Shown here: positions 12,580-50,500 of the stretch, one piece after another
Numbering within the stretch: the stretch's first letter is position 1
How the letters are laid out: every line of letters starts with the position of its first letter
NCBI GenBank assembly: GCA_019244185.1
Contig: JAFATB010000006.1
Span: 160,001-224,000 of the forward strand
Source of the DNA: Acidobacteriota bacterium
GTDB lineage: Bacteria > Acidobacteriota > Thermoanaerobaculia > Gp7-AA8
Direction: 5' to 3'
Length of the DNA stretch: 64,000 nucleotides
The notes under the pieces: generated by a model
The model's input: the letters and a program-made list of their open reading frames with translations, nothing else
The model's database searches: none
What the model was told of the DNA's origin: nothing
Position numbers and translations under genes: made by a program

Positions 12580-12898
12580 TGGTACTCCTCCTTTTTTAAG
12601 GGCACGTGACACCGCCGCGGGTGTAGCGGGATGCGGATGCAACGCGCGTCGCATCGAACGCCACCCGGCCAAATCACCGGTCGGCGGCGCAGCAGCGGTA
12701 GAACGCCGACGCTCAACGAATCAGCGCTAATCGCACGTTACCGCCCTCCGCGAGCGCAGCATCGCGGCGGATCATGTGCCGTTTCGCAGGTGGCGGTGAA
12801 CCAACTATTTAGATCTTTCGCTTGCGCGTCTGACGCGCGCGTTAGGCGCAATGTCATGCGCATGAAAGAAAAGAGAAAAAGAGAAAAGGTAGGAGGCC

Positions 12899-30168: not shown

Positions 30169-30198
30169 GTCGCGCTAGGTATATATACCTAGCGCGAC
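30169..30198. promoter_or_regulatory. perfect 30-bp palindrome, probable operator 1
   Basis: GTCGCGCTAGGTATATATACCTAGCGCGAC. Confidence 0.8.
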
Positions 30199-30272
30199 AG
30201 GCAATCCGCTCCTCGCTCCGCCGCTCATGAGTTCATCATTCCTCGGCGACTGCTGAGCCCCATGCAGGTCTG

Positions 30273-30302
30273 GTGCTCCTAGGTATATATACCTAGGAGC
30301 AC
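30273..30302. promoter_or_regulatory. perfect 30-bp palindrome, probable operator 2
   Basis: GTGCTCCTAGGTATATATACCTAGGAGCAC; shares an 18-bp core with operator 1. Confidence 0.8.
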
Positions 30303-30754: not shown

Positions 30755-33700
30755 TCAGCGGCTGAACTGTTTCAGCGCGTCTTCATCGCGCTCATTGATC
30801 TTCTTCAGCTGCGCAGCCGTCTTGCGTTCCGCGTAGGCGATCATCGCGCGCGGCTGATCCGTCAAGGCACGTCCTAGCCAGAGCGGATCGCCGCGACGGG
30901 TGAGAAGAAGCGGGGCGCCAGAGTTGATGAGCACCTCCAAAAGCGCCCAAGCCTCTGTACCGCGCGAGGTCGCGAGGTCGTCGAGCAACTGCTTCACGCG
31001 TCGATGATGGACCTGGAACCAAACGGCTGACTGCGCGAACCTCCGGACCATCGGATCCACATCTTCAATCGAAAGCCTCGCGACCATCTCCGAAGCGAAG
31101 TCGTCGAACCACCCGGCGACCTGCGCTCCGGCTGCTCGAACAAACGCGTCGTCGCCCATGAGCATTTTTCCGATGCGCGTGGTGACCTTCGGTTCCTGCT
31201 GGAGCCTACGTAGCGCACGACAGATGTACGGGCGAATCAACGAACTGCGCTCGTGCGGCAAATGTCCCAAAAGCACTTCCGCTCCACGCAGCGCGTCGAT
31301 ATCGATCAGCAAGTCTGGATACGGCGTCCGATCGCCGGTGCTCGACAGAGCAGCGTAAGCCATCTCGAACGCCACCGTCGGCTGCCGATGAATCAGTCCA
31401 CGGATTGCGCCGCAGCGGCCATCGGAGCGTGGGTTTGCTGCGTCGACGAGCAGCACGTCCGTCGCCTCCTCGTTGTCGAGATAGCCGATGGCGTCGTAGA
31501 ACGCGGCCGTCGAACGCCAGAAGTAGCGGTGCTCGCGTTGTGCGAATCGCCACACCACCTCGGCCAGCCGAGTGCGGCCCGACTTGATCACCATCCGCGC
31601 TACAATCCACGCCAGATCGTCGGAGATCCGGAGTGGATCGAGCGCGAGAAGCAACTGCTCGAGCTCATCGAGTGCTTCATCCGTTCCGATCGCGCGCAGA
31701 GCATACGCTACGGACACCGCCTCACGAAGGAAATCGAGCCGGCGGATCGTTGCTACGGGGGTGCTTTCGTCAGTGAGCATCCGGACTGCTGTCAGCACGG
31801 CGCCTTCATCCTCGTAGGGAATACTGCTCAGTGCGAGATCGACGAGCATTTCCACCAGATCCGAGCGTCCGGATACAGCCAGGATTTGGCTCACGCGCGA
31901 ACGCGCTTCAGGATCCTTCAACGCTGCGACCATCGGAGCGATCTCGTCATCTGTCGCCGGAGGTAAATCGACGAGAAGTTCCGCGAGCTCGTCATCGACC
32001 CACAATCGCGAGTCTTCGAACAGCAGTGACCGCACCCGCGAGCGCTCGCCCATCGCCGCGAGCGCACGCAGCGCAGCCATCCGACGCGTCGTGTGCTCGT
32101 CGTCATCTTCACCGGCGCGAGCAATCGCAGCCAATCGTTCGACGGCATCGGACGAAGGCGTGGTAACCATGCTACGGATCTCCGTGCCGCACCACGATTG
32201 GCAGGCGTCGAGTTGATGCAGGAGAAACCGTTCCAGTTCGGCCCCGCCGATGCTCAGAAGCAGCCGGTGCACCTGCCGCACGAAGTGCCGGTCGAGCGTG
32301 TTCGAGCCATGCGGCGTAAACATCACGGCCACCTCGTGCAGCTTCCGCGGCAGCGCTGCGTCTCGCTGCTCGCGCAGTATGCGCAGGCCGTCCCTTGAAT
32401 CGATGGATGCAAGAAGTTCGATCAAGTGCTCCAGATCCGGCGGTGGACGGTCCGGGCGGTCACTGCTCAGCGTACTGTCGATCATTGCCTCCAGACGCTC
32501 GAGCGCGGCATCGATCGTCTGTTCATCGATCTCACGCTCGCCGCCGAAAGCCCCGTGAAGTGCAGCGCAGCTGTATTGGCCCGACTGAAACTTGTCGCGG
32601 ATCGCGGTTCGAGTCCGGTCTGGAATGGTCAGGAGAAGCGGCGACAACCACCAGTCCTCGTAAAAGGACATGCGCTCGACTTCAGACCGTTCGAAGATTC
32701 CGATTGCCACCTCCGGCTTAAGGCGGCATAGGGCGGCGAATGCTTCCTGAGTCACCCAATCGGCTTCGCTGTGAGTCCACTGAATGAGGTAGTCAACCGC
32801 ATCCGAATCGCGATAACGATCAATACAGTCGATTGCCCCGCGGAACCCGTCGTTTCGGAATGCATCGAGAAAGATCGGTTTCAAATCGAACCAGAGTCGT
32901 CGTCCGTCCTCATTCGCCAGGACGGCAACGAGCCACCCAAGGGTCCTCAGCTCTTCACGATCCGTCTTTGCGGTGGTCGCCGTACGGATCCATTCAGGAT
33001 CGACGCGGCAGCATGCTACGAGCGCGTGCTGCGCAAGCTGCTCTCGGTGATAACCCTCTCCGTCTTTCCCAGCGAGCTTACGCTCCCGATACAGCCGCCA
33101 AATGACGTTGAGAAGACCACCGGACGGTTGCAGTCGCGCAAGTTCAAGGCCGGCGTCCTGCACCTCGGCATTCGCGTCCTGCAGCAACGTCAGAACAAAC
33201 GCGGGACCGACTGCAAACCGAGCCGCGACCTCCTTCATGCACAGCCGAGCCTCACGCACGCGATGCCATGGCGCTTCAGGAACGCGCATGCGACTCAGAA
33301 GCGCTGGTAGCAATCCGGGCCCGATCGTGGGGAGCAGCTCTTCATATAGTTTCTGACTGGGAGCATCTTCGAGTGCCTGAAGAACCTCGACGATCTCCTC
33401 AACCGAGCGGCGGTACTGGACCAGCAACCAGACCACGTCCATCGCCACGTATCCAAGATGCCGCTCCCCTTTCTGCCGAGTCCGTCCAAACAGGTCTGCC
33501 ACCACCTCCGCTACCTTCGTTGAACTCCATTTGCCGCGTTCAAGTTGCGCAAGAACGGCACGTGCGACAGCCCAGTTCAGAAATCGATCGTGCGCGAACT
33601 CCACGCCACCGTCGACGTGAACACGCAGCCACCCGAGGCGCTGCAGCCGTAACTGCATCTCGGACGGGATGTGCAGGCCAAGCAGCACGTCTGCAGGCCA

Positions 33701-34915
33701 CGGATACGACTCCGGGCTGTCCAGAAATGCGTTTGCCAAGGTGACGAGTACGCCGACATCCTGCGGATGCTGCGCCTGTCCTTTGGCGGTAGAGACCTGA
33801 CGCCAGAATCGATCGTACAGCTCATATTCATTCGTCGGCTGCCAATTCGCGTCCTCCGACAGCCTGCAATACAAATCGGCCAGAATGGCGCGGCGCAGAA
33901 GTTCGAGGACGTCCTGTGGCACCCCGGCCATGCTCCGACCACGCAGCTGCAACAGCTGCGCAATTCGGACAGGCGCATCTCGCCTACCGCTTGAAGAACT
34001 ACGCGCTCCCGGACCTCGGCGTCCTCGCGGATGCGCTGGGCTGCGTTCTCGTCAGCGGTGAAGGCAACGCGAACGCCCCACTCCCTCCACGGCAGCGCGA
34101 TCAGCGCGAGCGCTTCGTCCACAGATGCCGTCAGGTCGAAGCAGACGGTCAACCAAGGCATCTCGGAGGCGATCGCCGCCTTCGCCCGCCTAACGAGCGA
34201 TTCCCAGTCGAGCGGACGATCGTGGCCTACAATGCGCTTCCAGACTTCGTCGGAGGCACGTTGCAGCGCATCCTCAATCCCCTGCCGAGTTGCAACGAAG
34301 ACGACATTCCCCGCTGCCGCGTTCTCGATGGCGACTTGCGCGAGAAGCGTTGTCTTTCCCATACCGCTTCCACCGGCGAGACAAAGAACCGTCTCGGCCG
34401 ACGGCCAGCTCACGACGCGGCGAACCGTGACCGTCACGTCGTACCGGATTTCTCCCAATCGCCGGTTCAGTTGCGCCAGCGTGGTTTCTCGGAGACCCGG
34501 GAAGCGAGCGAGCGAGATCGTCGGCAGATCCAAGCGGCGCAACAATGTCTCGAGCGTGAAGCGACGCTCCCCGCGGCTCCCGAATTGAAGCAGTAGCCCG
34601 TACAGCTCGCGGGCAACATGCGGAACATCTTCGGCGTGATCGACGTACCCGAGCAGTAACGAGCTCACTCGATCATGCGCATCGTCCGCAGACTGCCGTC
34701 GGATCTCAAACCGGGACAGAAGCGCCCACGTGCGTCGGTATGCGACGTTGTCCGGGGGATCCTCCGATTTCGAAAGACGCGCCGCCACATCGCGGAAGAA
34801 GGTCTCGTACGTGTCATCGACAAAGATGGAATCGGCTACCTCTACGATCCGGCGCGTTTCGCGGAGATCCTCGATGACGGCACGGTCGGCCTGAGACTCG
34901 CGGGAGGATGTCAAA
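30755..34915 (-). pseudogene. large STAND/NACHT-like NTPase with HEAT-like repeats; 5'-truncated and frameshifted near 33955
   Basis: LAGGSGMGKTT, FAHDRF; two overlapping ORFs join at MRLSELR/LLQLRGR; 5' boundary approximate. Confidence 0.7.
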
Positions 34916-34984
34916 GCACGCCTCCGCGAACAGTTTGTCGATGCCGACGAGCACCTGCCCGAGCAACCGCCGCGCGAGTGGCAC

Positions 34985-35185
34985 ATGACGACCTCGGGCA
35001 AATTCATCTTCCCTGACTACGAGCCGGTCGATGTCGTCGGGCGAGCGCTGTACTGGCAGGACATTGCGCAGCAACTCGCGCGTCAGCTGCGCCGGCTCGG
35101 TAAGGCAATCAACGCGACGAGTGCCGAGCAACCCGACACCATCGTCGAGCGCGCAATCGTTCGACTTCGAGGTACGTCCGAATGA
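34985..35185 (+). CDS. small phage-like hypothetical protein
   Basis: ATGA-coupled to the next gene. Confidence 0.45.
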   Translation: MTTSGKFIFPDYEPVDVVGRALYWQDIAQQLARQLRRLGKAINATSAEQPDTIVERAIVRLRGTSE

Positions 35186-35616
35186 ACAGGAAGGAAGTAG
35201 AAGTGCAGGCGCAGGAACGACGCTACAAGAGCATCACGAGGGTTGACTCATCCCGTGTGCACGGATGGTTCGTCCGCGTCGTGCACAACGGAGACACGCA
35301 TCCCAAACTCTTCAGCGACGGCAAGCACGGTGGCCGCGCTGCTGCATTGGCGGCAGCCGTTCGCTGGAGGAACAAGACTGAGCGCGCCATCGGCAAACCG
35401 CGTACCGAACGGATCGTCGTGGCGCGTAAGGCGGGTGCCGGAGTTCGTCGCAAGATCAAAGACGGCAGGCCAGTGTACGAAGTCACCTGGAGTCCGCGGC
35501 CGAAGAAAGTCAGCCGCACCACGTTTTCGATCGCGCTTTACGGCGAACGCGGCGCGCGCGATCTCGCGCACGCTCTGCGTGCCGAAATGGAGCGCCGCTA
35601 CTACGGATATCGATAG
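35182..35616 (+). CDS. AP2-domain DNA-binding protein (two AP2-like units)
   Basis: GWFVRV...KLFSDGKHGG..AALAAAVRWR; second unit TFSIALYGERGARDLA. Confidence 0.7.
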   Translation: MNRKEVEVQAQERRYKSITRVDSSRVHGWFVRVVHNGDTHPKLFSDGKHGGRAAALAAAVRWRNKTERAIGKPRTERIVVARKAGAGVRRKIKDGRPVYEVTWSPRPKKVSRTTFSIALYGERGARDLAHALRAEMERRYYGYR

Positions 35617-35618
35617 AG

Positions 35619-35924
35619 ATGAACGATACGAACTTCCTGGATCTCGTCGAGAGCATTCGCCAAGCGGGAAAGATTCATCGCGCGATGCGCCGTCATCACA
35701 AGACCCGCAGCATCGCGGCGGCACGTCGTCTGGCCGAGCGGTGGAGCCGGCCGATCGATCGATGGCCGAATGAACGCGTGCGCAAGGCATGGGTTGAACG
35801 CACGGCGCGCCTCCTCGCCGATACACCGCACCAGTGCTCATCCACCATTCATGGCTGCGGACACAAACGCCAGCTTCTCGGCAGGACGATTCAGGAACGA
35901 AGAGCTGATGAGCGGGACGATTGA
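35619..35924 (+). CDS. phage-like hypothetical protein
   Basis: Tightly packed ORF; CS..CG motif. Confidence 0.5.
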   Translation: MNDTNFLDLVESIRQAGKIHRAMRRHHKTRSIAAARRLAERWSRPIDRWPNERVRKAWVERTARLLADTPHQCSSTIHGCGHKRQLLGRTIQERRADERDD

Positions 35925-36435
35925 GAAGGCGCGAGCGGTCCTCGCGCAACTGGAACAGACCACCGACGTTCCACGCGACGAGACTGCAGCTGCCTTGCGC
36001 GAGCTCATCGCGCTTGCCGAGGGTGTCTTCGAAGACCTCGACGACTGCAACACCAGAATCGCTCGTGCGGCGAAGGCAATCGGCGCGACGGGTTGTCCGG
36101 TGGATCAGCTGAACGCCGTGGTGCGCTACACCGAGCGCGTGGCACCGCACTTTCGCTACATCGCGGCTTCCGGTGAGCTGATTCACCGGCAGCGTGACGA
36201 GAACGGACTTCTGTCAAGCGAGTTTGTCGGGCCTATCGAGATCCGCCGTAATCGCGACGGTTCGCTGGATGAAGTCGTCGCGCAGAACGTGTTCGTCCAC
36301 CTGGAGCAGATGGCCGACAACTCGTGCTGGATGGGCGTCAGCACGTCCGACAACGCACATCTCATCCACGTCAACTTCTACTCGGATCGAGCAATCGAAG
36401 CGGAAGCTGAGGATCAGCATGCGGAGGAAGAGTGA
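35908..36435 (+). CDS. phage-like hypothetical protein
   Basis: ATG 35908; LDEVVA..VHLEQM....WMG motif. Confidence 0.55.
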   Translation: MSGTIEKARAVLAQLEQTTDVPRDETAAALRELIALAEGVFEDLDDCNTRIARAAKAIGATGCPVDQLNAVVRYTERVAPHFRYIAASGELIHRQRDENGLLSSEFVGPIEIRRNRDGSLDEVVAQNVFVHLEQMADNSCWMGVSTSDNAHLIHVNFYSDRAIEAEAEDQHAEEE

Positions 36436-36443
36436 TTGCCTTT

Positions 36444-37399
36444 TTACTTCTTCTTCGGAATCGTGCAGTCGAGAACAACCGGCGTGATGAAGAAGCCCTG
36501 CGGCCGGAAGTCCTCGGCCTGACGGGAGAGATGCGCCTCCATCTCCTCACGCGACCAGGAGTGGCACTGCTTCTTTCGTCCGTCCCCATCCGTCCAAGCT
36601 GAGGCACCGAACCAGGCCACGAGATAGATTCCGAATGGCGACGTCGAACTGCGCAGGTATTTCTCAACGAGCTGCGTTTCCATCGCGGTCGGCAAGTCGG
36701 TGTTCCAGCACCCCTTGACCTCGATCGTAACCACCAGCTTCGGATCGAGGTCGCGTCGCACGCCGCGCCCCACGGCTTCGATCTTGATGTCGGTGAAGAA
36801 ACGGTCGAAGACCTCCACTTCCTTGTTGGTGACCAAGTGCGGAAGCGCCAAATCGTCGTTCAGGAACCTGCGAATCCAGTCTCGAACTGCTCCCTCGTCC
36901 TTGGGTTGATCGTCATCCCACAGATACTTGGCCGTCGGGTCCTCGCTGTGTAGCTGCGCCTGCAGCCGCTGAAGCGACTCGATCACGACCTCCACGAGTC
37001 GCTCCGCATTCTGCACAACGCGGTTTCTTCGATCTGTCGCCAGCGCGAACAGCTCTTCCGGAGCGGGCGGAGTCCACGAATGCGTCTGTCGTTCCTCCTC
37101 CGCCATCATGATGAACTGGTCGTGAATGCGGTTCGGAAACGCGGCTTGGATGCGCCGCAGTTCGTCGACCCTTCCACGCTTGCGGAGAACGTTCAGCACC
37201 TCACTGATCGCGAGGCCGACCTGAGACTCCAGGCCCAGCTCCTCCTGCGCGCGACGCGTGTACAACCAGATCACGAGGTCAGCGATCTCGGAGTCTTTCA
37301 GCCTCGCGATGAATTCGCTGATTTGATCGGGGCCGAGGAGCGATTCGATGAGCTCCTGGCCGGTGTCACCGGCGATACGAACAAACGGCCACACCGACG
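36444..37399 (-). pseudogene. 3' remnant of a large protein with C-terminal REase-like domain, truncated by the IS
   Basis: E..TDI...IEVKGCWN...QLVEKYL...GIYLVAWF; reading frame runs into the IS left IR. Confidence 0.7.
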
Positions 37400-37466
37400 G
37401 GTGGTGGTTTACTTTGAACCTTTACTTGTAACAGGCCACGCGCCAGTTACAACCTACATTGAAACG

Positions 37467-37607
37467 TGGGTGGTGCCACCGTGGGAGTAACCCAGACATG
37501 CAGATGGGAACGTGGAGGTTTGGCTTCACCTGCGCTCGGCTCAAGACCGAGCCGCACCAGACCCCACCACACAACCCGTCCGCTCTTGCAATCGGTGGCA
37601 CCGCCCA
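37467..37607 (+). ncRNA. candidate structured RNA, unit A
   Basis: 15-bp closing stem (one U-G), 5' mini-hairpin, long nested stem; no convincing ORF. Confidence 0.55.
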
Positions 37608-37630
37608 ACCTTGAGACCTACATTGGAGAT

Positions 37631-37760
37631 GGGGAGCGTGCGCATGAGTTAACCAGACTCAGACACTGAGCGGAGCGAGAGGTTGGGCACGCACCGGATT
37701 CCAGACCCGGCAGCACCCAGCGCTCGCATTACCCGTGTTTTGGCAATGCGCACGTTCCCC
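37631..37760 (+). ncRNA. candidate structured RNA, unit B
   Basis: 15-bp closing stem (one G-U); same architecture and same ACCTACATTG leader as unit A. Confidence 0.55.
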
Positions 37761-37773
37761 GACCTCAACCTGT

Positions 37774-37947
37774 TTACTTTCTGGATGGGTCCGGTTTGGT
37801 ACGTCGCTTGCTCTTTGGGAGGGCAGCGCGTTGACGTAGCACATCCCGGTCGGACACCGGTTTCGGACCAGTTTCGGTGTGTTCGATTACTACATCCAGA
37901 ACAGCGCGTGCTGCCTTGATCGGATCACCCCGTGATTTCGACTTCAT
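37774..37947 (-). CDS. small basic passenger protein
   Basis: GAGG RBS, ATG 37947. Confidence 0.45.
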   Translation of the reverse strand: MKSKSRGDPIKAARAVLDVVIEHTETGPKPVSDRDVLRQRAALPKSKRRTKPDPSRK

Positions 37948-38248
37948 TGGTTCCTCGCTCACAGTCTGTAATTCTGTCTTCGAGCACGCTCAACCAGTCT
38001 TCCAAATCGTTCAACCTTGCTCCCAGACTGCTAAGCCGGGCTTCCAAACGGTACTGTTCTTGTTGTTTGTCCGCTGACTGGATCGATGCATGTTCTACCC
38101 ATAACCAAGCAAGCCACAACATCACGCCGGTTGTCAGCATGAACAGCGAGGCCAGCTTGCCTAGATAGATCAACTGCCTGCGACTGGCAGCAAACACCAC
38201 AACCGCCACCACACCGCACAGCACGTACACCCACCAGCGCGCCCTCAT
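37925..38248 (-). CDS. 2-TM membrane protein with coiled-coil tail
   Basis: ATGA overlap with the lipoprotein gene. Confidence 0.6.
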   Translation of the reverse strand: MRARWWVYVLCGVVAVVVFAASRRQLIYLGKLASLFMLTTGVMLWLAWLWVEHASIQSADKQQEQYRLEARLSSLGARLNDLEDWLSVLEDRITDCERGTNEVEITG

Positions 38249-38547
38249 GGCGTCGCCGCCACACACCTGAACTGCACCTCCGCCTTTGGATAGTTGCCGA
38301 ACATGTACGGTGAATGACCGGTGAGAGTGTTCACCACCTGTAACATCTTCCCGTGTTCCGCGCAGAACCGACTCGCTTGCAAGGTGATGTCGGCAGTAAT
38401 CGAGTCTGAACCGATAAACCCTGTGGCTCCACGCTTATAAATCCTGTACATGTCCGTGCCGGGCAGCGCAACCACGCCCGTGGTTGAGCCGCATCCCGCG
38501 AGCATCAGCACGGCCTTTGCCACCATACGACGAAAGTGACGGTTCAT
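38245..38547 (-). CDS. small lipoprotein
   Basis: GGAGG RBS; LAGC lipobox; A..FC...GK and FRC motifs. Confidence 0.75.
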   Translation of the reverse strand: MNRHFRRMVAKAVLMLAGCGSTTGVVALPGTDMYRIYKRGATGFIGSDSITADITLQASRFCAEHGKMLQVVNTLTGHSPYMFGNYPKAEVQFRCVAATP

Positions 38548-38636
38548 GCGGTTTGCCTCCATTCGCTCTGATACCCATAGAATGGATACCGAAAGCATGG
38601 AAAGCAAGCGCTTAACACGAACAACACTTTCGCCGA

Positions 38637-38882
38637 ATGGCGGCGCGGAGCCCAGCGGTACAGTTAGTTGGAGCACGATTGAGGGAGTTGCGGAAGTCTC
38701 GCGGACTCTCACAGGAACAACTCGGCCATCTATGCGGACTCGACCGTAACTACGTCGGTCAAATCGAGCGAGGCAACCGCAACCCTTGTTTGGACAACAT
38801 CGTGAAACTGGCAAAGGCGCTCGGCGTAACACCCGCAGACCTGTTCAGCCGGTTCGACCTCGACACGATGAGGGATGTATAA
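38637..38882 (+). CDS. XRE-family HTH regulator (C-protein-like)
   Basis: GLSQEQLGHLCGLDRNYVGQIERGNRNP. Confidence 0.9.
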   Translation: MAARSPAVQLVGARLRELRKSRGLSQEQLGHLCGLDRNYVGQIERGNRNPCLDNIVKLAKALGVTPADLFSRFDLDTMRDV

Positions 38883-39008
38883 GGGGAATGGGGGTAACTG
38901 GGGCGCGTCCGAACCGCGCTGATGGGAACCGAAGTAGGCGTCAGTTTGTGGAACTGACCAGCCACGCCTCTCAGTACCTGTGACACCAGTTGCCCCCATT
39001 CCCCTTAT
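38879..39008 (+). ncRNA. candidate structured RNA, unit C
   Basis: 23-bp closing stem (one U-G) around 84 nt with internal hairpins. Confidence 0.55.
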
Positions 39009-39152
39009 CGTTTGAATCCCACCTCGGCGCGTGTATGCCCACGGCAACAGCGCCATCAACCACTACATTCCTGTGGAATACCACCGATCCGGCCATCCGA
39101 CCGGTGTCAAGTCTGGCGTATCCACGTTACGACTCACATTGTAGGTAAGCAT

Positions 39153-39963
39153 ATGAGGAGACTGCCTAAATCCACCCGCACCAGAATTCTTGCTGCTCTC
39201 GTCGAAGGTAATTCCATTGCATCCACCTGCCGACTGGTGGGTGTGGCCAAGCTCACCGTACTGCGGCTACTGGAGGAAGTCGGTGAAGCGTGTACGGCAT
39301 TCAGCGACCGGTTCATTACCGGCATTGAATCGCCGCACGTACAGGTGGACGAGATGTGGGGGTTCTGTCAGCAGAAACAGAAGAACGTATCCCCGGAGAA
39401 TGCGGGCGTTCTGGGGTATGGCAACGTCTGGACCTACATCGCAATAGACTCACGGTCCAAACTGGTAATCACGTGGCGTGTGCGGGCATCGTAACGAGCA
39501 GACCACACGTGACTTCCTGCATGACTTGGCGTCCCGGCTGACTGGACCCGTTACGCTCTCTACTGACGGGTTCATGGGATACGTCAATGCGATACCGGAA
39601 GCGTTTGACGGAACGCTGAACTACGGGGCTGTGGAGAAACTGTACGAGCGTAACCGGTACGTCGGTGCGAACTACACGAACCGAGTGGGAAACCCGTCGA
39701 AGATATCCACGTCCCTCATCGAGCGCCAGAACCTCACGGTGAGAATGTCAAACCGGCGCATGACGCGCAAGACGAACGGTTTCTCGAAGAAACTGTCCAA
39801 CCACATCTACCAGCTGGCAATCAACTTCGTCTACTACAACTTCGTCCGCACTCACGCCACCATCAAGACGACACCAGCGCTTGCAGCCGGGATCATCGAC
39901 TACCAGTTGTCGCTTGCCGATATGACCGAGTTGGCAATCTGGAGCGATGTGCAGGCGGCGTAA
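39153..39963 (+). pseudogene. IS1-family transposase (HTH plus DDE), frameshifted near 39480
   Basis: VQVDEMW, WTYIAID, TDG, IERQNLTVR, RKTNGFSKK split over two frames. Confidence 0.85.
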
Positions 39964-40003
39964 ACAGGCACAATTACGCAGGCTGTCCCAATGGTCGGTA
40001 CCG

Positions 40004-40076
40004 TTGCGGGATTTACACTCCCGGTAGGCTCGCTGCCGTTGCCAGCGATGGGGTTCAACTCCCACAGCCTCCGCAA
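40004..40076 (+). ncRNA. tRNA-like (T-arm-containing) structure
   Basis: GGG-TTCAACT-CCC arm, 5-bp/7-nt arm, AGGCT/AGCCT and TTGCGG/CCGCAA pairings. Confidence 0.4.
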
Positions 40077-40084
40077 ACCCAGTC

Positions 40085-40231
40085 TAACAGGTGGGGTGAG
40101 TGGAACCATCCAAACTCGCGGTGACGACTACTGCTTGCGGGACGACTTTCCGAACGTCGGCGGCAGTTGTACGTCTGTGACACTTTGGCGAACGGATTTG
40201 GTTTGGATGGTTCCACTCACCCCACCTGTTA
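40085..40231. ncRNA. candidate structured RNA, unit D (perfect 31-bp inverted repeat, 85-nt interior)
   Basis: TAACAGGTGGGGTGAGTGGAACCATCCAAAC at 40085-40115 and its exact reverse complement at 40201-40231. Confidence 0.55.
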
Positions 40232-40267
40232 TGTGCAGACTGCGTTATTTGCTATACTCTCAACCCC

Positions 40268-40594
40268 ATGACGGTCGAAGAGATACGCGTACAGAAAGCA
40301 CTGGCGATGTTGGAAGTGGAAGAGGCCGAGACCGCCCACGCTGCTGCCAGTGAGCACGCCCACGAGTTGCAAGTGGCAACTAGTGAGGCGATCAGTACTG
40401 CCCTCGATATTGCCCGTCGTTTGCCTGTGCAGGTGGATCGACTGCGCGAGACGTTGGCAGGGATTGATCTGGACGGGCTGTCAGAGGCACAGACGCAGGC
40501 CGAACGGTTTCTTGGTGCCGCTGCGGCCGCCCGAGTGAAACTGCGCGAGTTTCAACTACCCGGACGACCTGTTACAAGTGGATGGGGAAAGTAA
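40268..40594 (+). CDS. helical passenger protein; stop lies within the right IR
   Basis: TATACT -10-like element just upstream; A/E-rich helical ORF. Confidence 0.55.
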   Translation: MTVEEIRVQKALAMLEVEEAETAHAAASEHAHELQVATSEAISTALDIARRLPVQVDRLRETLAGIDLDGLSEAQTQAERFLGAAAAARVKLREFQLPGRPVTSGWGK

Positions 40595-40747
40595 ACCAGT
40601 ACCCGATAACCTGCACCGGTGTGAGTTGGCCGCGTTCGGCCGCAACGTGCATTGTAGCGACGGCAATCTCTCGCGTTTTCAGATACCAAACCCAGGTCTA
40701 TCGGTGAAGATCATCAAGGATGATGACCGTCGAACGCCCACCGGTAT

Positions 40748-40978
40748 TCATGAAACTGCCAAACTTCTTTTTCGCCCACCCCAGCGCCGATCCCGCAAAC
40801 GCTTTGAAATACCGAGCGTCGTGTTCTGGCACTGCTCGCCGACCGGATCGCGGCCATTAACCGGGTCGCCGCCCGCAAATGTGTAAGGCGTTGAAGAGTC
40901 TTGATAATTCGGATCCGGCGGCACGAATGTGCCGGTCAAGGAATCCAGCCACCGCTCCCTTGCAGACACGCTAGCCAC
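40748..40978 (-). pseudogene. degenerate Rhs core-end fragment
   Basis: ARERWLD...YTFAGGDPVNGRDPVG parallels the core end of the giant Rhs. Confidence 0.75.
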
Positions 40979-41003
40979 TTGACTGCATACAATCGCGGCT
41001 CCG

Positions 41004-41540
41004 CTAAAATCGACTACTTCGGCGGTTGCGTTGCATTATTTTGCGGTTCCGCGCTGCGGTGTAGTCTTTACCGTGGTCAACAGAAGGCGAATCTGAAATA
41101 TCCGAATATGGGCCGTCGGCAGCCATCTCAGGGAAGGCACGCACCGGCACTTCTACGCCTCGGACCTGTGTTACGGGCTCATATTCCACAGGTGCAAACA
41201 TCATCGGTATAAAGTCCGTGGCGAAGAATGTTCCCACTGCTATGGCGCGACTGCGATCCGCAGCCGTGATGGTCGTGAAGCCCTGGCCAGGAACGTACAG
41301 GATCTCGCCGTCTGCATCAGCGCGTGCAACCGCCGCTTCGAACGTCGCGATGTCGTTGACCATCGTCCGCTTCGCGAGTTCGTAATATTCTGTCGTGACG
41401 GTCAAATCGGCCATCTGCGTTTCGTAATCGCCGCCAATCGCGCCGCTCGTGTCGTACCACTTCCGCGCTACTGGCACACGAAGCGGCTGCCTGAACGACC
41501 TACGTTCGGTTCTCGTGAAATCGTCATAGACCTTCTTACC
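41004..41540 (-). pseudogene. orphan Rhs C-terminal toxin remnant (HNH-type lead-in), truncated
   Basis: GPYSDISDSPSVDHGKDYTAARNRKIMQRNR resembles the start of HNH toxin tips; lower GC. Confidence 0.45.
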
Positions 41541-41564
41541 GCGCCCTTTCAGCATCGCGAACCG

Positions 41565-42735
41565 CTCGCGTTTGCGTGGCGTCGACTTTCGTCTGCGCCG
41601 CGTCATGCGGCCGTTCGCCGTGTAGCTCGCCTGCGCGACTCGCCGATGAGCGTGCCGACCGCGCGTAGGTCTTGACGCTCTTCGGGTTGCCCCAGTCGTC
41701 GAAGTCGGTGACGGTCTTCACGCCGTTCGGAGCGAGCGACGACGTCGCGCGGCCGTGGACGTCGTACGCGACGGCGCTCGCGCTGTGGTTGTCGGCCGAG
41801 TAGACGAGGTTGCCCGCGAGGTCGTACGCGTACTGTTCGACGATCGGCGTGCCGCCGGTGGTCGTGGTGCGCTTCGCGATTCGTCCGAGCCCATCCAGTT
41901 CTTCCGTGACCACCGCGCCGCCGGGCAGCATGCGCACGATCTTGCGATTGGTGAGGTCGTAGTCGGTGGTCGTGGTGACGGAGGTGAGGCCCTCGCCCAC
42001 CGCGACGTTGTTCGTCGTCGACTGCTTCACGCGACCGAGCGGGTCGTACGCGAGCGACGTGGTCACGCTGTGGCCGTCCTGCTTGTGCGTGGTCTCGGTG
42101 AGGCGTCCGTTGAGGTCGTACTTGGACGACTCCTCGAGCGAGAGCGACGGGCCGGTGGTGACGCTCGACACCGGACGGCGCCAGCCGTCGAGGTTCGTGA
42201 GCGTCGAGACGCCGCGCTCCTCGTCGACCTTGATCTGATCGGGCCCCGGATACGCGAACTTCGTCTGCAGGCCGGAGGCATCGACGAGCTCCGGCATCGC
42301 GCGCGCGTACTCCGGCGCGGTGGCGTCGCGGAACTTGTAGCTGACTGACGCGTTGCCGCCGGCGTCGGTGCCGCCCGTGCTCGTGACGGTTTTCGGCTGG
42401 CCGTACGCGTCGACTTCGACCGTCGTCGTGATGGCGTCGTTCGTGGCCGCGACGCTCTTCTTCATCGCGCTCGGCTCGGAGGTATGGATCGTGTCGCTGC
42501 CGATGCTGACGCTCTCGAGATACGCGGGACGCGGATTCGACGATGCGTCGTCGTAGCCGAAGGTCCGCTTGATCGGCGTCGCGCCGCTGCCGCTCGTTTC
42601 GCTGGTGAAGAGCACGAAGCCGGGCGCGCCGGGCTCGATCGATTTGTAGGTGTTCGTCGTCGTGCGGATCGTGCTCGTGGCGCCGATGCCGAGAGCTCGC
42701 TTCGTCGTTTGTCGTCCTTTGAGCATGCGCCGCGG
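41565..42735 (-). repeat. diverged duplicate of an internal YD-repeat segment of the giant Rhs (about 48190-49380)
   Basis: Near-identical DNA and protein (TIRTTTNTYKSIEPG...WGNPKS) with scattered substitutions and indel-rich edges. Confidence 0.9.
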
Positions 42736-44050: not shown

Positions 44051-44521
44051 TTACTTAACGGTATTTTCGTCCCAGGCCGCGTTGAAAGCGCGATGCAGCA
44101 AAGGATCATCCGGCCCAGTAGGCAACCATCCGTCCCTGACGTCCGATGAATTGAACCACTGCCATACACGATGGCATTGCTCCTCATAATACTCGCCGAC
44201 AAGGGTCATCCAATCTGAAAATGCTTGGACTCGGGCGTACTCGGCGCTTGAGTCACCGCGCCAACCATCGGGCAGGTACTCGCGCAGAAACCTAGACAAG
44301 GTATCGACTGCGAATGCCCGCATGTCGTCTGACATTTCCGCTTCCTCTTTCAAGAGGAGCTTCAACTGAATCGGCGCCACGGAACTTGAGAGAACCTCAA
44401 TCATCTGATCGAAGGTTTCAGTTCGATGCGACCGAGCAAATTCTGTCGCGCTGCGGTATCCAAGTGCACGCACCCTCGACCGCAATCGTTCGTGCCAGTC
44501 GCCATCCCAAACGTTTGTCAT
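44051..44521 (-). CDS. cognate immunity protein of the giant Rhs toxin
   Basis: ATGA overlap with the Rhs stop; WxGDW..RL..RVR..G and GWLPTGPDDPLL motifs. Confidence 0.8.
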   Translation of the reverse strand: MTNVWDGDWHERLRSRVRALGYRSATEFARSHRTETFDQMIEVLSSSVAPIQLKLLLKEEAEMSDDMRAFAVDTLSRFLREYLPDGWRGDSSAEYARVQAFSDWMTLVGEYYEEQCHRVWQWFNSSDVRDGWLPTGPDDPLLHRAFNAAWDENTVK

Positions 44522-47500
44522 TGTCGAAATGGGACAAACGAGCCTGAAAGGCCATAGTCCCTCATCATTTGCTTGCCAACATCGAAAACTTCAGCAAACG
44601 TCAATGCCCGCCCAAGAAGCTTTTCGCGCTGCGAGATGCGGGACATGATCTGTCGATTCCATTCGCCTTCCCATTTGCGACCAAGGCGATAGTTCCCGCC
44701 TCCGTGAATGGCTTGATGAATCGCTTCGTCCAACTCCAGAGTAAACTGATCAATATCGCGACCCCCTGTGAAACCACGGACCTCAAAGAACGCTCGAAAT
44801 TCTTGAGGAAAAACATGGTGACGAGGATTGCGGACCACGCCGGCACCGCGCGCGCCAGTCTCAGTCACCGCATCCGATTCTGGGCCCTCCCCCAAGGAAT
44901 CGTGCACTGAACTCGCGAGCACAATCGTCGAGACCATCGGGCCACTTCGTGCGCTACGCGCGATCACTCCCGCCGTGGGCAATACTACTCCCGAGCTTGT
45001 CGCAAGTGCCGGTGCAGGAGTTGTCGGCGTGTTCATCGCGGACACTGTCCCGCGCACAGCTGTATAGCCATCAAGCAACGCTGGTGCAGCCGCGCGTGCT
45101 ATGTCTTCTTTGCATCCACTGCTCGAAGCGGCGTCGATTGCCTTTACTCGCTTGTCAACCGCGCCTCCAATAACATATACTGGCGTACCTTCGCCACGTT
45201 CGACAGCCGCGATGGCAAGTGACAGGCTGCGTCGTTCCTGACGACGAGCGTCTGCGGCATTCTCATGCACCCATCCCCCATACCCGAATGTTAGGGTATC
45301 GATGAGTTTCACAGTTTGATCCCCACCAAAGTTCATGAATCCGACGAATGCACCCTTAGCCCATTGCCAAGCGCCCTCCCCTGCCGCTTGTAATGATGCA
45401 AGCGTTGTGTTCTTGCATGGCTTCTGCAGCCCTGAAGGGTCTCGATCATTTACGGGGTCGCCCCCAGCGAAGGTATAAAGGTTTGAAGCGTCGACGTACC
45501 CCAGCGGATCCGGCGACAGGAACGCCCCCCGCCCCGCATCAAACCAGCGCTCCCTCGCGAACACGAGTCCCGTCCCTACCTCCTCGAACGGCAAGGCCTG
45601 GAACGACGACATGAGGATGCTGCGACCCACTGCCGGCTCCGCTGGTGAGCCCAAGGCGGCGAGGGAGGGGGCGGCGTAGGGGGTGGTGGTGGGGTCGGGG
45701 GCGGCGAGGAAGGACGTGAGCGTCGCGAGGGACGCGCGGTATTCGACGGGGAGGGTGGGGGAGGTGTGGATGGGGTGGGCGGTGGTGGCCCAGGTCGGGG
45801 GCGGGAGGATGGGGGTGGCGGTGGACCACGCTTTGGCGCGGAGGGTGTTGGTGACGGCAATCGAGAGCGATTGGACGTCGCCGGTGGGGGACGTGAGCGC
45901 GGTCCACTGGGTGGGGGTGAGGGTCCAGTGGATGGTGTTGGGGTCGGAGAGCGTGGAGGTGACCGTCGCGGTGCGGACGACGTTGCCGCTCGCGGTCACG
46001 GCGGCGAGGCGGGTGCCGGTGGCGAGGGTGGCCTCGTCGAGGGCTTCGGTCGAGCGGATCGAGACCTCCACGGCCGTGAGGTTACCACTCGCGTCTTTGG
46101 TCTTGCTCAGCGTGATGCGATCGATGGCGGCGCCGGCGAGGCTGCTTTCTTCTTCGCCGTAGGCGCCGTCGACGACGGTGCGGGAGATGACTTTGCCGTC
46201 GTCGCCGAGGATGAGCTGGAGGTTGCCGTTGCCGGCTTCGTCGAAGACGGGGTAGAAGTGATGCACGTCGGGCGTCACGCCGTCGGTCACGGTCACCTCG
46301 AGCGGATCGTCGTAGGCGGCGTCGCCGTGGATGAGTTGGCGGAGAAGACCTCCGTTGGCGTCGACGGACGGGTTCGCGCTCGCGCCGGCTTTGTAGACGG
46401 AGACGAGACGGTCGGAGATCGGGTCCCACACGAACGTCGTCTCGGCGGGCAGGCCGTCGGCGAAGAGGACGGCGTCGCGGTTCTCGAGCTTCCAGTCGCT
46501 GTCGAGCGGCGGCATGGAGATGGAGCTCAGCTGCGCATACTCGACGCGGCGGCCGACGATGCGGTTGCTCGCGGCGTAGTCGTAGCGGAAGCGGCGGATG
46601 GTGAGTGACGGCGTCGGGATTTCGGTCGCGGTGATGATGCGGCCGCGGTCGTCGAACTCGTACTGATAGCGGCCATCACCCGTGCGCTCGGCGCCGATGT
46701 AGGTGAACGTGTGCGACTCGCCGTTCGCGGCCACGGTGCCGATGCGGTGTCCGGACAGCTCGTCGAAGTTGAGCGTCGGCGGCGCGGCCGGTTCGACGGA
46801 CGGCGACGGACGCTCGAGCTGCGTGCGGAAGCCGGCGTCGGTGACGTGCTCGATCGACGGATTGCTGCTGTCGTCGTGCGCGGTGACGGTCGTGAGCAGA
46901 CGGCTGCGCGCGTCGTAGGAGTACTCGTTGAAGCGTGTATCGGCGGAGATGCCGAGGAGCTGCTCGCGTTTGATCTGCACGCCGTCGTACGTGATGGCGG
47001 AGCCGCCGACGACGTTGCCGCCGGCGACGATGCGCAGCTCGGAGAGCTGTCCCGCGTTCGCGGTGTCGTAGGTGTACTGACGCTCGATGACGGCCGACGC
47101 GCTCGTCGTCAGCGTACGCACGTTGGGGCGGCCGGCATTGCGGTAGTCGGCGGTGAGCAGCGGCATCGGCGACGGCGCACCGATGAGCGTGCGCGTCATC
47201 GCGCTCACGTTGCCGGCGGCGTCGTGGCTCTCCCCTACCTTCTGCGTCCATTGCGTCGCGCTGGTGGGAAAGCCGCTGTAGGACGGCATCGTCCACGACT
47301 CGCGTTCGCCGTGCACGTTCCAGGTGTGATCCTGCTCATAGGAATCGAGCACGGTCGCCGAGCCGAAGCCGGAGTGATCCTTGAAGCGCGTCTGCTTCGT
47401 GCGGCGCGGGCGATCCTCGAAGTCGTAGTCCTCGAAGACGAGCGCGGCGTCGCGCGTGCGCCATGTGGTGATGCGGCCGGCGGCGTCGTAGTCGAGCTTC

Positions 47501-50500
47501 TCGATGAGCTCTCCGCCGTTGCGGCGGATCTCGGTGAGCTGGTTCTTGTCGTCGTAGGTGTAGTTGAAGAGGCGGCCTTGGCGGTCCTTCATCGACGCGA
47601 GGCGCGAGCCGTCGTAGGTCCAGGTCTCCTGCGTGCCGTCGGGATAACGGCGGACGCTCGGACGGCCGAGGAGATCGGACTCGGTCGTTTCGGTGAGGCC
47701 GGTGCCGGTGCCGCCGTCGGACTCGTCGCGATACGACGTGTCGGTGCCGGCGGCGTGATAGCCGTACTTCACTTCGGGGGCGCCCGGCTCGCGTTTCGAG
47801 AGCAGGTTGCCGCGCGCGTCGAAGTGCTGCCTCGTCGACTCGCGCGCGGGCGGCGCGTCGGCGGTGACGTTGCCGTCCTCGTCGTAGCTACGCTTCCACT
47901 CGAGCGCGCCGGCCTGGTTCCGCGTCGGATTGCCGAGCGTGTCGTAGTCGTACTGCATGTCGATCGGCGAGGTCGCGCCGCGCTCGGTGAGCGTGCCGTT
48001 CTTGACCATGCCGCCGGTGTAGTCGGAGGCGAGGTACTTCGAGAACTCGGTCGTGATGGTCGACGTCGTGCCGGCGCCGGCGATCGAGGACTTGAGGCGT
48101 CCCGCGTCGTCGAAGGCCTGCTTCGCGGCGCGTCCGCTGACGGCGGTCGACGTGATGCGGCCGGCGCCGTCCCACTTCATCTCGCTCTCGCGCGTTTGCG
48201 TCGCGTCGACTCTCGTCTGCGCCGACGTCATGCGGCCGTTCGGCGTGTAGCTCGCCTGCGACTCGCCGATGAGCGTGCCGACCGCGTCGTAGGTCTTGAT
48301 GCTCTTCGGGTTGCCCCAGTCGTCGTAGTCGGTGACGGTCTTCACGCCGTTCGGCGCGAGCGACGCGGTGGCGCGGCCGTGGACGTCGTAGGCGACGGCA
48401 CTCGCGCTGTGGTTGTCGGCCGAGTAGACGAGGTTGCCCGCGAGGTCGTACGCGTACTGTTCGACGATCGGCGTGCCGCCGGTGGTCGTGGTGCGCTTCG
48501 CGACGCGTCCGAGTCCGTCGAGTTCTTCGGTGACGACGGCGCCGCCGGGCAGCATGCGCACGATCTTGCGATTGGTGAGGTCGTAGTCGGTCGTGGTGGT
48601 GACGGAGGTGAGGCTCTCGCCCACCGCGACGTTGTTCGTCGTCGACTGCTTCACGCGACCGAGCGGGTCGTACGCGAGCGACGTGGTCACGGTGTGGGCG
48701 TCCTGCTTGTGCGTGGTCTCGGTGAGGCGTCCGTTGAGGTCGTACTTGGACGACTCTTCGAGCGAGAGCGACGGGCCGGTCGTCACGCTCGACACCGGAC
48801 GGCGCCAGCCGTCGAGGTTCGTGAGCGTCGAGACGCCGCGCTCCTCGTCGACCTTGATCTGATCCGGCCCCGGATACGCGAACTTCGTCTGCAGGCCGGA
48901 GGCATCGACGAGCTCCGGCATCGCGCGCGCGTACTCCGGCGCGGTGGCGTCGCGGAACTTGTAGCTGACCGATGCGTTGCCGCCGGCGTCGGTGCCGCCC
49001 GTGCTCGTGACGGTTTTCGGCTGGCCGTACGCGTCGACTTCGACCGTCGTCGTGATGGCGTCGTTCGTGGCCGCGACGCTCTTCTTCATCGCACTCGGCT
49101 CGGAGGTATGGATCGTGTCGCTGCCGATGCTGACGCTCTCGAGATACGCGGGACGCGGATTCGACGACGCGTCGTCGTAGCCGAAGGTCCGCTTGATCGG
49201 CGTCGCGCCGCTGCCGCTCGTTTCGCTGGTGAAGAGCACGAAGCCGGGCGCGCCAGGCTCAATCGATTTGTAGGTGTTCGTGGTCGTGCGGATCGTCGCG
49301 CTCGTGGCGCCAATGCCGGAAAGCGTCGCCGTCTCCAGCATGCCGTCGGGCACATACGTGAAGAGCATGCGCCGCGTCAGCGACTCGGTCGGCGCGCCGG
49401 ACGGCGTGACCGCGGCCGGCAACGTGCCGAACGGCGTCGTCACCGCGGCGACGTTCGTCTCATCGAGCTGCCTCACGTGCGCGCGGTCGGTGGTGTAGTT
49501 GCCCGGCTGCGGCGTGAGCTCGTAGACGCGCTCCTGGCCGAGAACGTCTTTGGTCGTGGTGTGCGTCGCGTCCGTGTAGGTGAACGTGGCCGACTCGCCG
49601 GTCTTCCACGTCTGCGTCTTCACCTTGTCGCGATCGCTGGTGCTGTACGCGAACGCGACGCGCGGACCCTCGCCCATCGGATCGGTGATGGACGTGAGGT
49701 TCGGCGCGAGCTCGAGCTTGTCGTTGTACGTCGATGCGGGCGTGCCGTAGCCGTATTGCGTAGTCGGACGTCCGGTGCCGGTCTCCGGCAGCGTCGCGGT
49801 GATGAGGCGGCCCGCGTCGTCGTAGTCGTAGTCGACGCGCCCGAGCCAGCTTTCGATCGACTGCAGGCGTCCCGCTTTCAGTCCCGTGCCATCGGGGAAG
49901 TACATGAGGCGCGACACGCGGCCGACCGGATCGATGACCTGCGCGAGGCGGCCGCTGAGATCGTAGAGATAGCGGACGACGTTGCCGGCGTCGAGCGCGT
50001 ACGCGTTCGGCGCGAACTCGTCGGTCTCGTGCACGAGGCGTCCCATCGAATCGAACGCGCTGATGCGCGCCTTCTGATCGACGAGCACCCAACCACGATC
50101 GGTGCGCGAGAGCTTGAGGAAGAGTCCCTTCGGACGCTGGTAGAAGCCGGTGGCGTTGTCGAGCGTGAAGCGCCAGATCTCGCCGGCGCCGTCGCGATAT
50201 TCGACGTCGCCGTTCGGCAGCGCGCGCAGGCGGCGGAAGATCGACGACTCCCACCCCATACCGACCGTGCCGCCGATCGTGCGCGAGCGATACGTGCGAT
50301 CGAACAGGGCGTTCCAGCCGTTGCGGCCGCCCGCATCCATGTCGAGCGCGGAGGTCTCGACTTCGCCCGAATGGAGATACGTCGTCTCCTGCAATGCGCC
50401 GCCGGCTACGGGAGGCGCCTGCGCGGCGACGAGCACGCTCGGCGGACGCACGGTGTCGGCCATGATGGTGGCAAAGCGCGCGGTGAAACGGTTCTCGCGT

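Follow-up and report, generated by a model that had tools for sequence, protein, structure and literature searches.

A tandemly duplicated structured unit linked to IS1-like elements in an Acidobacteriota genome

Two tandem units inside a repeat-bounded segment

We analysed a stretch of 64,000 nucleotides from an Acidobacteriota bacterium (Thermoanaerobaculia, lineage Gp7-AA8; GenBank assembly GCA_019244185.1, contig JAFATB010000006.1, positions 160,001 to 224,000 of the forward strand), hereafter called the window and numbered from its first letter. On its + strand, two structured units, A (37452-37612, leader included) and B (37616-37766, leader included), are tandem neighbours and lie just inside the left end of a 3.2-kb segment (37398-40605) that is bounded by 38-nt inverted repeats matching at 30 of 38 positions. 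The earlier note on this DNA, which described the two units, overlooked that they lie within such a segment. The parts of the units are as follows:

37452..37461, + strand: leader of unit A, ACCTACATTG, an exact repeat of 37616-37625
37467..37607, + strand: unit A, with closing helix P1 (37467-37481/37593-37607), mini-hairpin and long interrupted helix
37540-37546, + strand: apical loop of unit A, CTCAAGA, at the end of the long interrupted helix
37616..37625, + strand: leader of unit B, ACCTACATTG, an exact repeat of 37452-37461
37630..37766, + strand: unit B, with closing helix P1 (37631-37645/37746-37760), mini-hairpin and long interrupted helix
37698-37706, + strand: apical loop of unit B, ATTCCAGAC, at the end of the long interrupted helix

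The two copies of the leader 10-mer are the only exact ones within the 64-kb window; with at most one mismatch, 6 matches were found where 1.05 were expected, a number reached by none of 100 shuffles. In both units, 4-5 nt separate the leader from the closing helix, the arms of which are 15 nt long and 93% complementary in A as well as in B (inverted-repeat search). The minimum-energy folds contain the 15-bp closing stems, mini-hairpins of 4-5 bp (TGGG-AGTAA-CCCA in A, GAGT-TAACCAG-ACTC in B), apical hairpins (CTCGG..CCGAG in A, CCGG..CCGG in B) and GCAAT before each 3' arm, so that the identical leader and the parallel architecture claimed in the earlier note are present in every part. The folding energies on the + strand correspond to z-scores of -5.15 for A and -4.33 for B, with none of 200 shuffles equally stable for either unit, and those on the - strand to z-scores of -2.72 and -4.12. 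When the closing helix was removed, the interior of A remained significantly more stable than shuffles (z = -3.62) and that of B marginally so (z = -1.90). The contigs of four DNA runs covering 35000-42000 carry units identical to those of the window, and we found no variant or joint bearing on the units. Short open reading frames (ORFs) cross the units on the + strand; the insertions and deletions between A and B are many and are not multiples of three.

Directly 5' of the leader of unit A, at 37424-37451, lies a 10-nt inverted pair (9 of 10 positions), TTGTAACAGG-CCACGCG-CCAGTTACAA, in which the left repeat's inner end is matched with a further repeat-like start. This pair could be a protein-binding site.

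Paralogy of A and B

Plain local alignment does not relate A to B significantly (z = 1.1 with the leader and 0.02 without it, in 1000 dinucleotide shuffles). A covariance model built from unit A alone (model R1) found B at 45.1 bits (E = 3e-10), and with filters off the rest of the 64-kb window gave at most 16 bits. Imposing the structure of A on B, a direct test of the claim that structure had been kept while sequence diverged, left 94.5% of the cells paired, and 15 of the 47 pairs, including 8 of the closing helix, had both partners altered; in slid controls, in which the 3' partners were moved by 1-3 columns, 33-41% of the cells were paired and 0-2 pairs showed changes on both sides. The A/B alignment is fitted to the model and its counts lean towards structure, and the gap to the slid controls is large. 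These results, which agree with the earlier claim, support the conclusion that A and B are paralogues, copied from a single structured unit whose structure is held by compensatory change.

A rare and patchy family

Comparison of A and B to 60 relatives by BLAST yielded short chance matches only, and the three that we inspected fall in ordinary coding genes. A covariance model of A and B together (R2) matched 2 of the 124 genomes of the bacterial family, namely the window's own genome and a relative, G701 (35.3 bits). The unpublished genomes G002 and G459 are counted in the denominators, and no positive statement rests on them. We then drew a pattern of the apical hairpin from A, B and G701, scanned sequence collections with it, and scored the fetched stretches with the model. 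Of the 56 stretches from genome_contigs, one gave a full-length model match (L078, 35.3 bits), and the other matches listed comprise the apical hairpin alone, at no more than 17.9 bits. The scan of metagenome_contigs gave 38 stretches and three matches: L135, which is identical to the G701 contig; L146 (32.2 bits), which is syntenic with G701 and 79% identical to it over 353 nt; and L139 (27.4 bits). The leader of L139, GCCTACATTG, agrees with that of A and B at 9 of 10 positions and is the best conserved stretch between A/B and this distant member; that of G701 is ACCTACCCTA.

The distinct members are thus A, B, G701, L146 and L139, five sequences at four loci. A covariance model from all five (R3), which scores unit A at 135.6 bits and unit B at 127.7 bits, was run on 150 other genomes of the class, on 18 others from the genus of G701 and 34 others from the window's own genus, and on 37 fetched loci (29 IS1-like loci of the phylum and 8 others), and it added no member. 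A borderline R3 match in G003, of the own genus (23.9 bits), was rejected as a different hairpin. The search at the level of the order covered nearly the same genomes as that of the family and added no member; two pattern scans of viral contigs, with 81 loci scanned, gave no full-length model match, and the plasmid and phage collections gave no match. The family of the structured unit is real, yet rare and patchy.

Consensus, covariation and folded strand

In the alignment of the five sequences, 90.9% of the 208 cells are paired and 32 of the 47 pairs differ on both sides, compared to 37-39% paired cells and 5-9 such pairs in slid controls; none of 500 shuffles reached any of the five measures. 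Covariation extends to all six helices and is greatest in P1, the most variable helix, where 12 of the 15 pairs are changed on both sides. Conserved in sequence are the leader, (A/G)CCUAC, the UGCRA that precedes the 3' arm of P1, and the apical loop, (A)YUCMAGA(C), which has 7-9 nt and sits on a stem of 4-5 bp; beneath this stem, 4 of the 5 members have an A/CA internal loop. The apical loop is of the size of an anticodon loop (pyrimidine, U, three bases, purine and A on a 5-bp stem), and we draw nothing further from this likeness.

The alignment holds 21 G-U cells and 7 A-C cells. On the opposite strand the 21 G-U cells become A-C mismatches, and pairing falls from 189 to 175 of the 208 cells. 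The sense z-score lies below the antisense z-score in 5 of 5 units, and on reading G701 against L146, the differences in P1, P3 and P5 (U-A to U-G, G-U to G-C and U-A to C-G) keep the helices only on the sense strand. Because of these three observations, the strand that folds is more probably the + strand of the window.

Link to the terminal repeats of IS1-like elements

The segment that holds the units also holds an IS1-family-like DDE transposase gene, an XRE-type helix-turn-helix (HTH) gene, two long hairpins and two small genes on the - strand:

37398..37435: left 38-nt terminal inverted repeat, with tip CGGGTGGTGG... and inner end ...TTGTAACAGG, pairing with 40568-40605 at 30 of 38 positions
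38637-38882, within the segment: XRE-type HTH gene (Pfam scan)
38879..39008: hairpin C, with 23-nt arms that are 96% complementary, 3' of the XRE-type HTH gene and 5' of the transposase
39012..39963, + strand: IS1-family-like DDE transposase in two frames (39012-39494 and 39478-39963), probably broken
40085..40231: hairpin D, with perfect arms of 31 nt and 85 nt between them, lying 3' of the transposase and 5' of the right repeat
40568..40605: right 38-nt terminal inverted repeat, from the inverted-repeat search and homology to repeats by units elsewhere

The two halves of the transposase match the NCBIfam model transpos_IS1 with E-values of 5.4e-8 and 8.2e-5, both below cut-off, and the Pfam family DDE_Tnp_IS1 with E = 3e-4, also below cut-off. 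A full-length relative of 310 aa, 48% identical to the second half, scores 28 bits with the Pfam model (cut-off 24.1) and 63 with the NCBIfam model (cut-off 100). Of the 401 genomes of the phylum, 76 encode intact relatives with a length of about 300 aa, and in the 29 loci of such relatives that we fetched we found neither the unit nor comparable flanking hairpins.

The sequence adjoining the unit in G701 (at 0 nt) and in L146 (at 55 nt) is homologous to the repeats of the window, at a score reached by none of 2000 shuffles, and in L139 a copy of the repeat lies 830 nt from the unit; with the window itself, all four unit loci therefore have a repeat within 0-830 nt. The repeat beside the corresponding site of a further genome, G107, is likewise homologous to the left repeat (0 of 2000 shuffles), and the window's own genome has a partial repeat copy beside a second IS1-like remnant. 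In both loci with a transposase, namely the window and L146 (2339-2608, a related transposase's C-terminal end), unit and transposase lie on the same strand. These comparisons show that the unit is linked to the 38-nt terminal repeats of one IS1-like element.

Three further candidates within the segment were rejected. Hairpin C is no family member (16 bits with R1, nothing at E <=0.1 with R3, interior z = -0.53), nor is hairpin D (14 bits with R1, nothing with R3, interior z = -0.41), and a supposed decayed right repeat just 3' of unit B (37768-37808) has a score that 419-1931 of 2000 shuffles reach.

Some smaller observations concern the element. Hairpin D splits off as a separate contig of 145 nt in the assembly graphs of three runs, and the orientation of its inner 85 nt is therefore left free by the contigs; it is possible that these 85 nt are an invertible segment. 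Within the transposase gene, CAACGTCTGGACCTACAT (39422-39439) resembles the A/B junction CAACCTTGAGACCTACAT at 14 of 18 positions and includes the complement of the loop of unit B (GTCTGGA) adjoining CCTACAT; since it encodes the conserved W-T-Y-I of the transposase, the resemblance may be due to chance, and GTCTGGA occurs 11 times in the window, close to chance for the exact 7-mers examined. Directly beyond the 38-nt repeat, on the side away from the unit, lie arrays of tandem repeats in G701 (L054, 2750-3200; period about 21 nt, GATCAACGTCGATCGACTTTC-like) and in L146 (1750-1880; period about 42 nt).

Interpretation and alternative explanations

With moderate confidence, at about even chances of being right, we interpret A and B as an undescribed transposon-borne structured RNA that is read from the + strand and is here tandemly duplicated. 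On this model, the motif would be a three-way junction of about 125-145 nt, comprising a 5' single-stranded leader, the closing helix P1 (10-16 bp, free in sequence), the short hairpin P2, the long interrupted helix P3-P6, which ends in a 4-5-bp stem with the conserved loop, and UGCRA. Its carriers would be distant insertion sequences of the IS1 family (DDE), all of one lineage, which occurs in a few members of the bacterial family to which the window belongs, and a copy of such an element, now decayed (37398-40605), would have landed in a defence island beside a nuclease-like gene. Transcription might proceed as one precursor or from the leader region, and the product would presumably be an element-encoded non-coding RNA that acts for the transposon or for its cargo and probably makes contact through the conserved loop and the leader. 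The covariation, the conserved loop and leader and the link to terminal repeats at 4 of 4 loci make this a concrete and testable candidate.

Several observations weigh against a transposon-borne RNA. The family is tiny, and of its five sequences at four loci two are orthologous and two are tandem neighbours; the alignments are fitted to the model, which inflates the pair counts, and the model was run on fetched loci rather than on whole public collections. L139 folds no better than shuffles (z = -0.32 sense, +0.48 antisense), and G701 with its flanks reaches a z-score of only -1.11. The position of the unit within the element varies, at the left repeat and reading inwards in the window and L139 vs. 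at the right repeat and reading outwards in G701 and L146. At the units, neither a sigma-70-like promoter nor a terminator-like site was found. In G107, a relative of G701, the small ORF (84% identical to that of G701), the repeat and a leader-like AACCTTC are all present at the same site, and the 126-nt hairpin is absent except for a single half-arm-like TCAGTTGG; the hairpin was therefore gained or lost as a DNA block, and given that P1 is partly self-complementary, deletion of an unstable palindrome fits as well as insertion, so that the site does not distinguish the direction. The same element also holds the two non-member hairpins C and D, and the genome is rich in palindromic repeats, which indicates that palindrome formation at the DNA level is common here. 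Alternatively, the units might be DNA-level hairpin elements, foldback or similar to miniature inverted-repeat transposable elements (MITEs), prone to insertion and deletion and accumulating in this transposon, with arms kept by copy-correction instead of selection on an RNA and a structure that forms in single-stranded DNA or is irrelevant. This explanation, to which we give a serious though minority share of the probability, accounts for a site that is filled in G701 and L146 and empty in G107, for C and D, whose interiors are not structured beyond chance, for the many palindromic repeat families and for the missing promoters and terminators; it predicts the strand bias equally well, since G-T wobble is tolerated in single-stranded DNA, and the bias therefore cannot separate RNA from single-stranded DNA. 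It agrees less well with P1, which would be the terminal repeat read by the transposase but is the part least conserved in sequence, with 12 of its 15 pairs covarying, or with covariation in six helices that include short internal ones, beyond the reach of arm-to-arm correction. Nor does it lead one to expect the sequence conservation of loop, junction and leader, only two copies in a 5.3-Mb genome that have diverged to sequence noise, or flanks at which, on reading, no target duplication is visible. Families of MITEs, repetitive extragenic palindromes (REP), bacterial interspersed mosaic elements (BIME) and Correia-type elements resemble the unit in length (about 130 bp), in their terminal inverted repeats and in a presence that varies at one site between relatives. 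They differ from it in that the unit's terminal arms are unlike in sequence between its copies, only two in the genome, that its covariation reaches internal helices and that its loop and leader are conserved; a typical MITE was rejected on the covarying P1 pairs, the copy number and the flanks.

The other explanations concern how the units would be expressed and on which strand. The earlier note proposed separately transcribed paralogous RNAs with TACATT as the -10 hexamer of each; the paralogy is supported, and the separate promoters are not. As a special case of the RNA interpretation, A and B would be two independently transcribed small RNAs, each with a start at the 5' end of its closing helix, some 7 nt past a TACATT of its own. 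The identical leader that ends 5 nt before each stem fits this, as does its being the best conserved stretch between A/B and L139, and T, A and the last T of the hexamer (TAnnnT) are kept in 4 of 5 leaders, a pattern beyond which nothing supports the separate promoters. A consensus scan, however, found no sigma-70 promoter-like site in 37300-40700, and on reading, A, B, L139 and G701 share no -35 element 16-18 nt upstream and have no TG extension. The hexamer is TACATT in 3 of the 5 members, TACCCT in G701 and TTCCCC, at the place of the -10, in L146, and the -35 position of unit B would fall inside the closing helix of A. We therefore consider two promoters unlikely. If the structure instead belonged to the - strand, it might be the cis-acting leader of the divergent gene: in 4 of 4 loci an ORF on the opposite strand starts 38-90 nt beyond the leader, and the - strand z-score of unit B (-4.12) almost equals that of the + strand. 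The loss of pairing on that strand (189 to 175 of 208) and the weaker antisense z-scores of 5 of 5 units argue against it, as do the transposon terminal repeat that separates the units from the gene in the window and the nature of the divergent genes, a 316-aa nuclease-like gene in the window, a 65-aa Cys-rich membrane ORF in G701 and L146 and a 152-aa Cys-rich ORF in L139, which are mutually unrelated; a - strand leader is very unlikely. We regard as still more improbable a type I antitoxin-like small RNA that controls the small hydrophobic divergent protein of G701 and L146. That protein (65-66 aa, Cys-rich, hydrophobic tail) has its gene on the opposite strand, 38 nt from the leader, and is conserved between the two; against this, it occurs in 29 of 401 genomes of the class with the unit in none of 30 fetched loci, its closest homologue, in G107, has no hairpin, and the window's own genome has no homologue. 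Among the pairs computed in a duplex search, complementarity between the unit and the small protein's message did not exceed that of shuffles (z = +1.2 and +1.3), and for units against neighbouring mRNAs the z-scores ranged from -1.7 to +1.7. An obligate pairing of the unit with the small membrane ORF was rejected, on the 30 ORF loci without the unit and the absence of the ORF from the own genome.

Comparison with known systems

Rfam 15 gave no match at the gathering score in the whole window, only two chance-level matches to eukaryotic families at E <=10 in 37300-37950, and nothing at E <=1 at the units in L054, L146 and L139; known ribozymes and riboswitches were rejected on this ground. ARAGORN found no tRNA or tmRNA gene in the window, and we rejected both. 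Full-text literature searches, judged by titles and the opening lines of abstracts, brought up no account of a structured RNA associated with IS1-family elements or with Thermoanaerobaculia, and as far as these searches and Rfam 15 reach, the motif is new.

Omega or right-end RNAs belong to TnpB of IS200/IS605 elements and to IscB, bridge RNAs to IS110 and seekRNAs to IS1111 elements. To our knowledge, RNA partners are so far known only for TnpB/IscB, IS110 and IS1111 elements, and none for IS1-family DDE transposases. The existence and general form of such RNAs are in part described in a preprint (10.64898/2026.10.21.760802). The unit resembles them as a structured unit inside an insertion sequence, near a terminal repeat, on the transposase strand and patchy in distribution; it differs from them in that its partner is an IS1-family DDE transposase and that it has no Rfam match. 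Pfam scans of the 51 ORFs of the window found no TnpB, IscB or DEDD recombinase, and the only transposase is IS1-like. Transposon-encoded structured RNAs (omega, bridge and seekRNA) have lately been shown to function within the machinery of transposition. It is conceivable, if quite unlikely, that an IS1-family DDE element here has a structured RNA of its own that would act in transposase control, in end or target recognition or in immunity, with the loop and the leader as contacts and the tandem pair representing two diverged specificities. Should the unit be only an unstable DNA palindrome, it would still be a clean case of two tandem copies that keep a branched fold past the point at which their sequences compare as noise.

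The small RNAs RNA-OUT (IS10) and art200 (IS200) are likewise encoded by an insertion sequence. They lie on the opposite strand and cover the 5' end of the transposase mRNA, whereas A and B have the orientation of the transposase and lie outside its gene. Retron msr-msd regions share with the units ends that close a helix, a short hairpin followed by a long one, and a location in a defence island; the fold agrees, as a resemblance only, and a retron was rejected because a six-frame search for reverse transcriptase (PF00078, RVT_1) found none in the 98.9%-complete own genome, compared to matches in 3 of 14 control genomes. Integron attC sites are imperfect palindromes of 60-140 nt that keep structure over sequence and are folded as a single strand, in which they resemble the units; their boxes read RYYYAAC...GTTRRRY. 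On reading, such boxes are not at the outer ends of the units, the only RYYYAAC-like heptamer, GCCCAAC, being at the 3' end of A and thus at the wrong end; the closing helix is moreover continuous over 15 bp, without an unpaired spacer or extrahelical bases, and the units abut without cassettes. attC was rejected accordingly.

Genomic surroundings

The window is a mobile defence island with an integrase (11203-12672), and it also encodes a DNA methylase, a HerA-like ATPase, a Schlafen-like domain protein, a ThiF/JAB protein, an IrrE/HTH protein, AbiEii and a STAND-like NTPase. The 316-aa nuclease-like gene (36444-37394, - strand) lies just left of the units, its start abutting the left repeat of the transposon; it matches the C-terminal part of the NACHT antiphage proteins EruA/HyoA, and in relatives this part forms the C-terminal end of single proteins that are about 1400 aa long. 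Together with a 312-aa protein of no family, a 476-aa P-loop NTPase and a 1065-aa HEAT-repeat protein, the 316-aa protein, which has a D...EVK nuclease-like motif, is encoded in 30755-37394 (- strand), a region that by its gene content looks like a split STAND/NACHT-like defence operon.

Further palindromic sequences were observed in the window and the rest of the genome. The interval that separates the HEAT-repeat gene from the next one holds, in 30175-30296, two copies of a self-complementary 18-mer, CTAGGTATATATACCTAG, which are 86 nt apart and each lie within a longer hairpin. Elsewhere in the genome there is a separate family of hairpins of about 150 nt with the core GCGATGCGGGACATCGC, the outer arms of which differ between copies yet remain complementary (for example C15:22674-22826, C7:320906-321037, C4:351468-351614 and C26:213254-213417), and there are two abundant families of palindromic repeats, GGAGCGCCTCCGGCGGGCCGGC... 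and GAATGAAGAACGCAGAACGCAGAA....

At the far end of the window, preceded by RHS-repeat and small genes, a single open frame of 6491 aa on the - strand (44518-63993) runs to the window end, with a G+C content of 67-72% vs. about 60% elsewhere.

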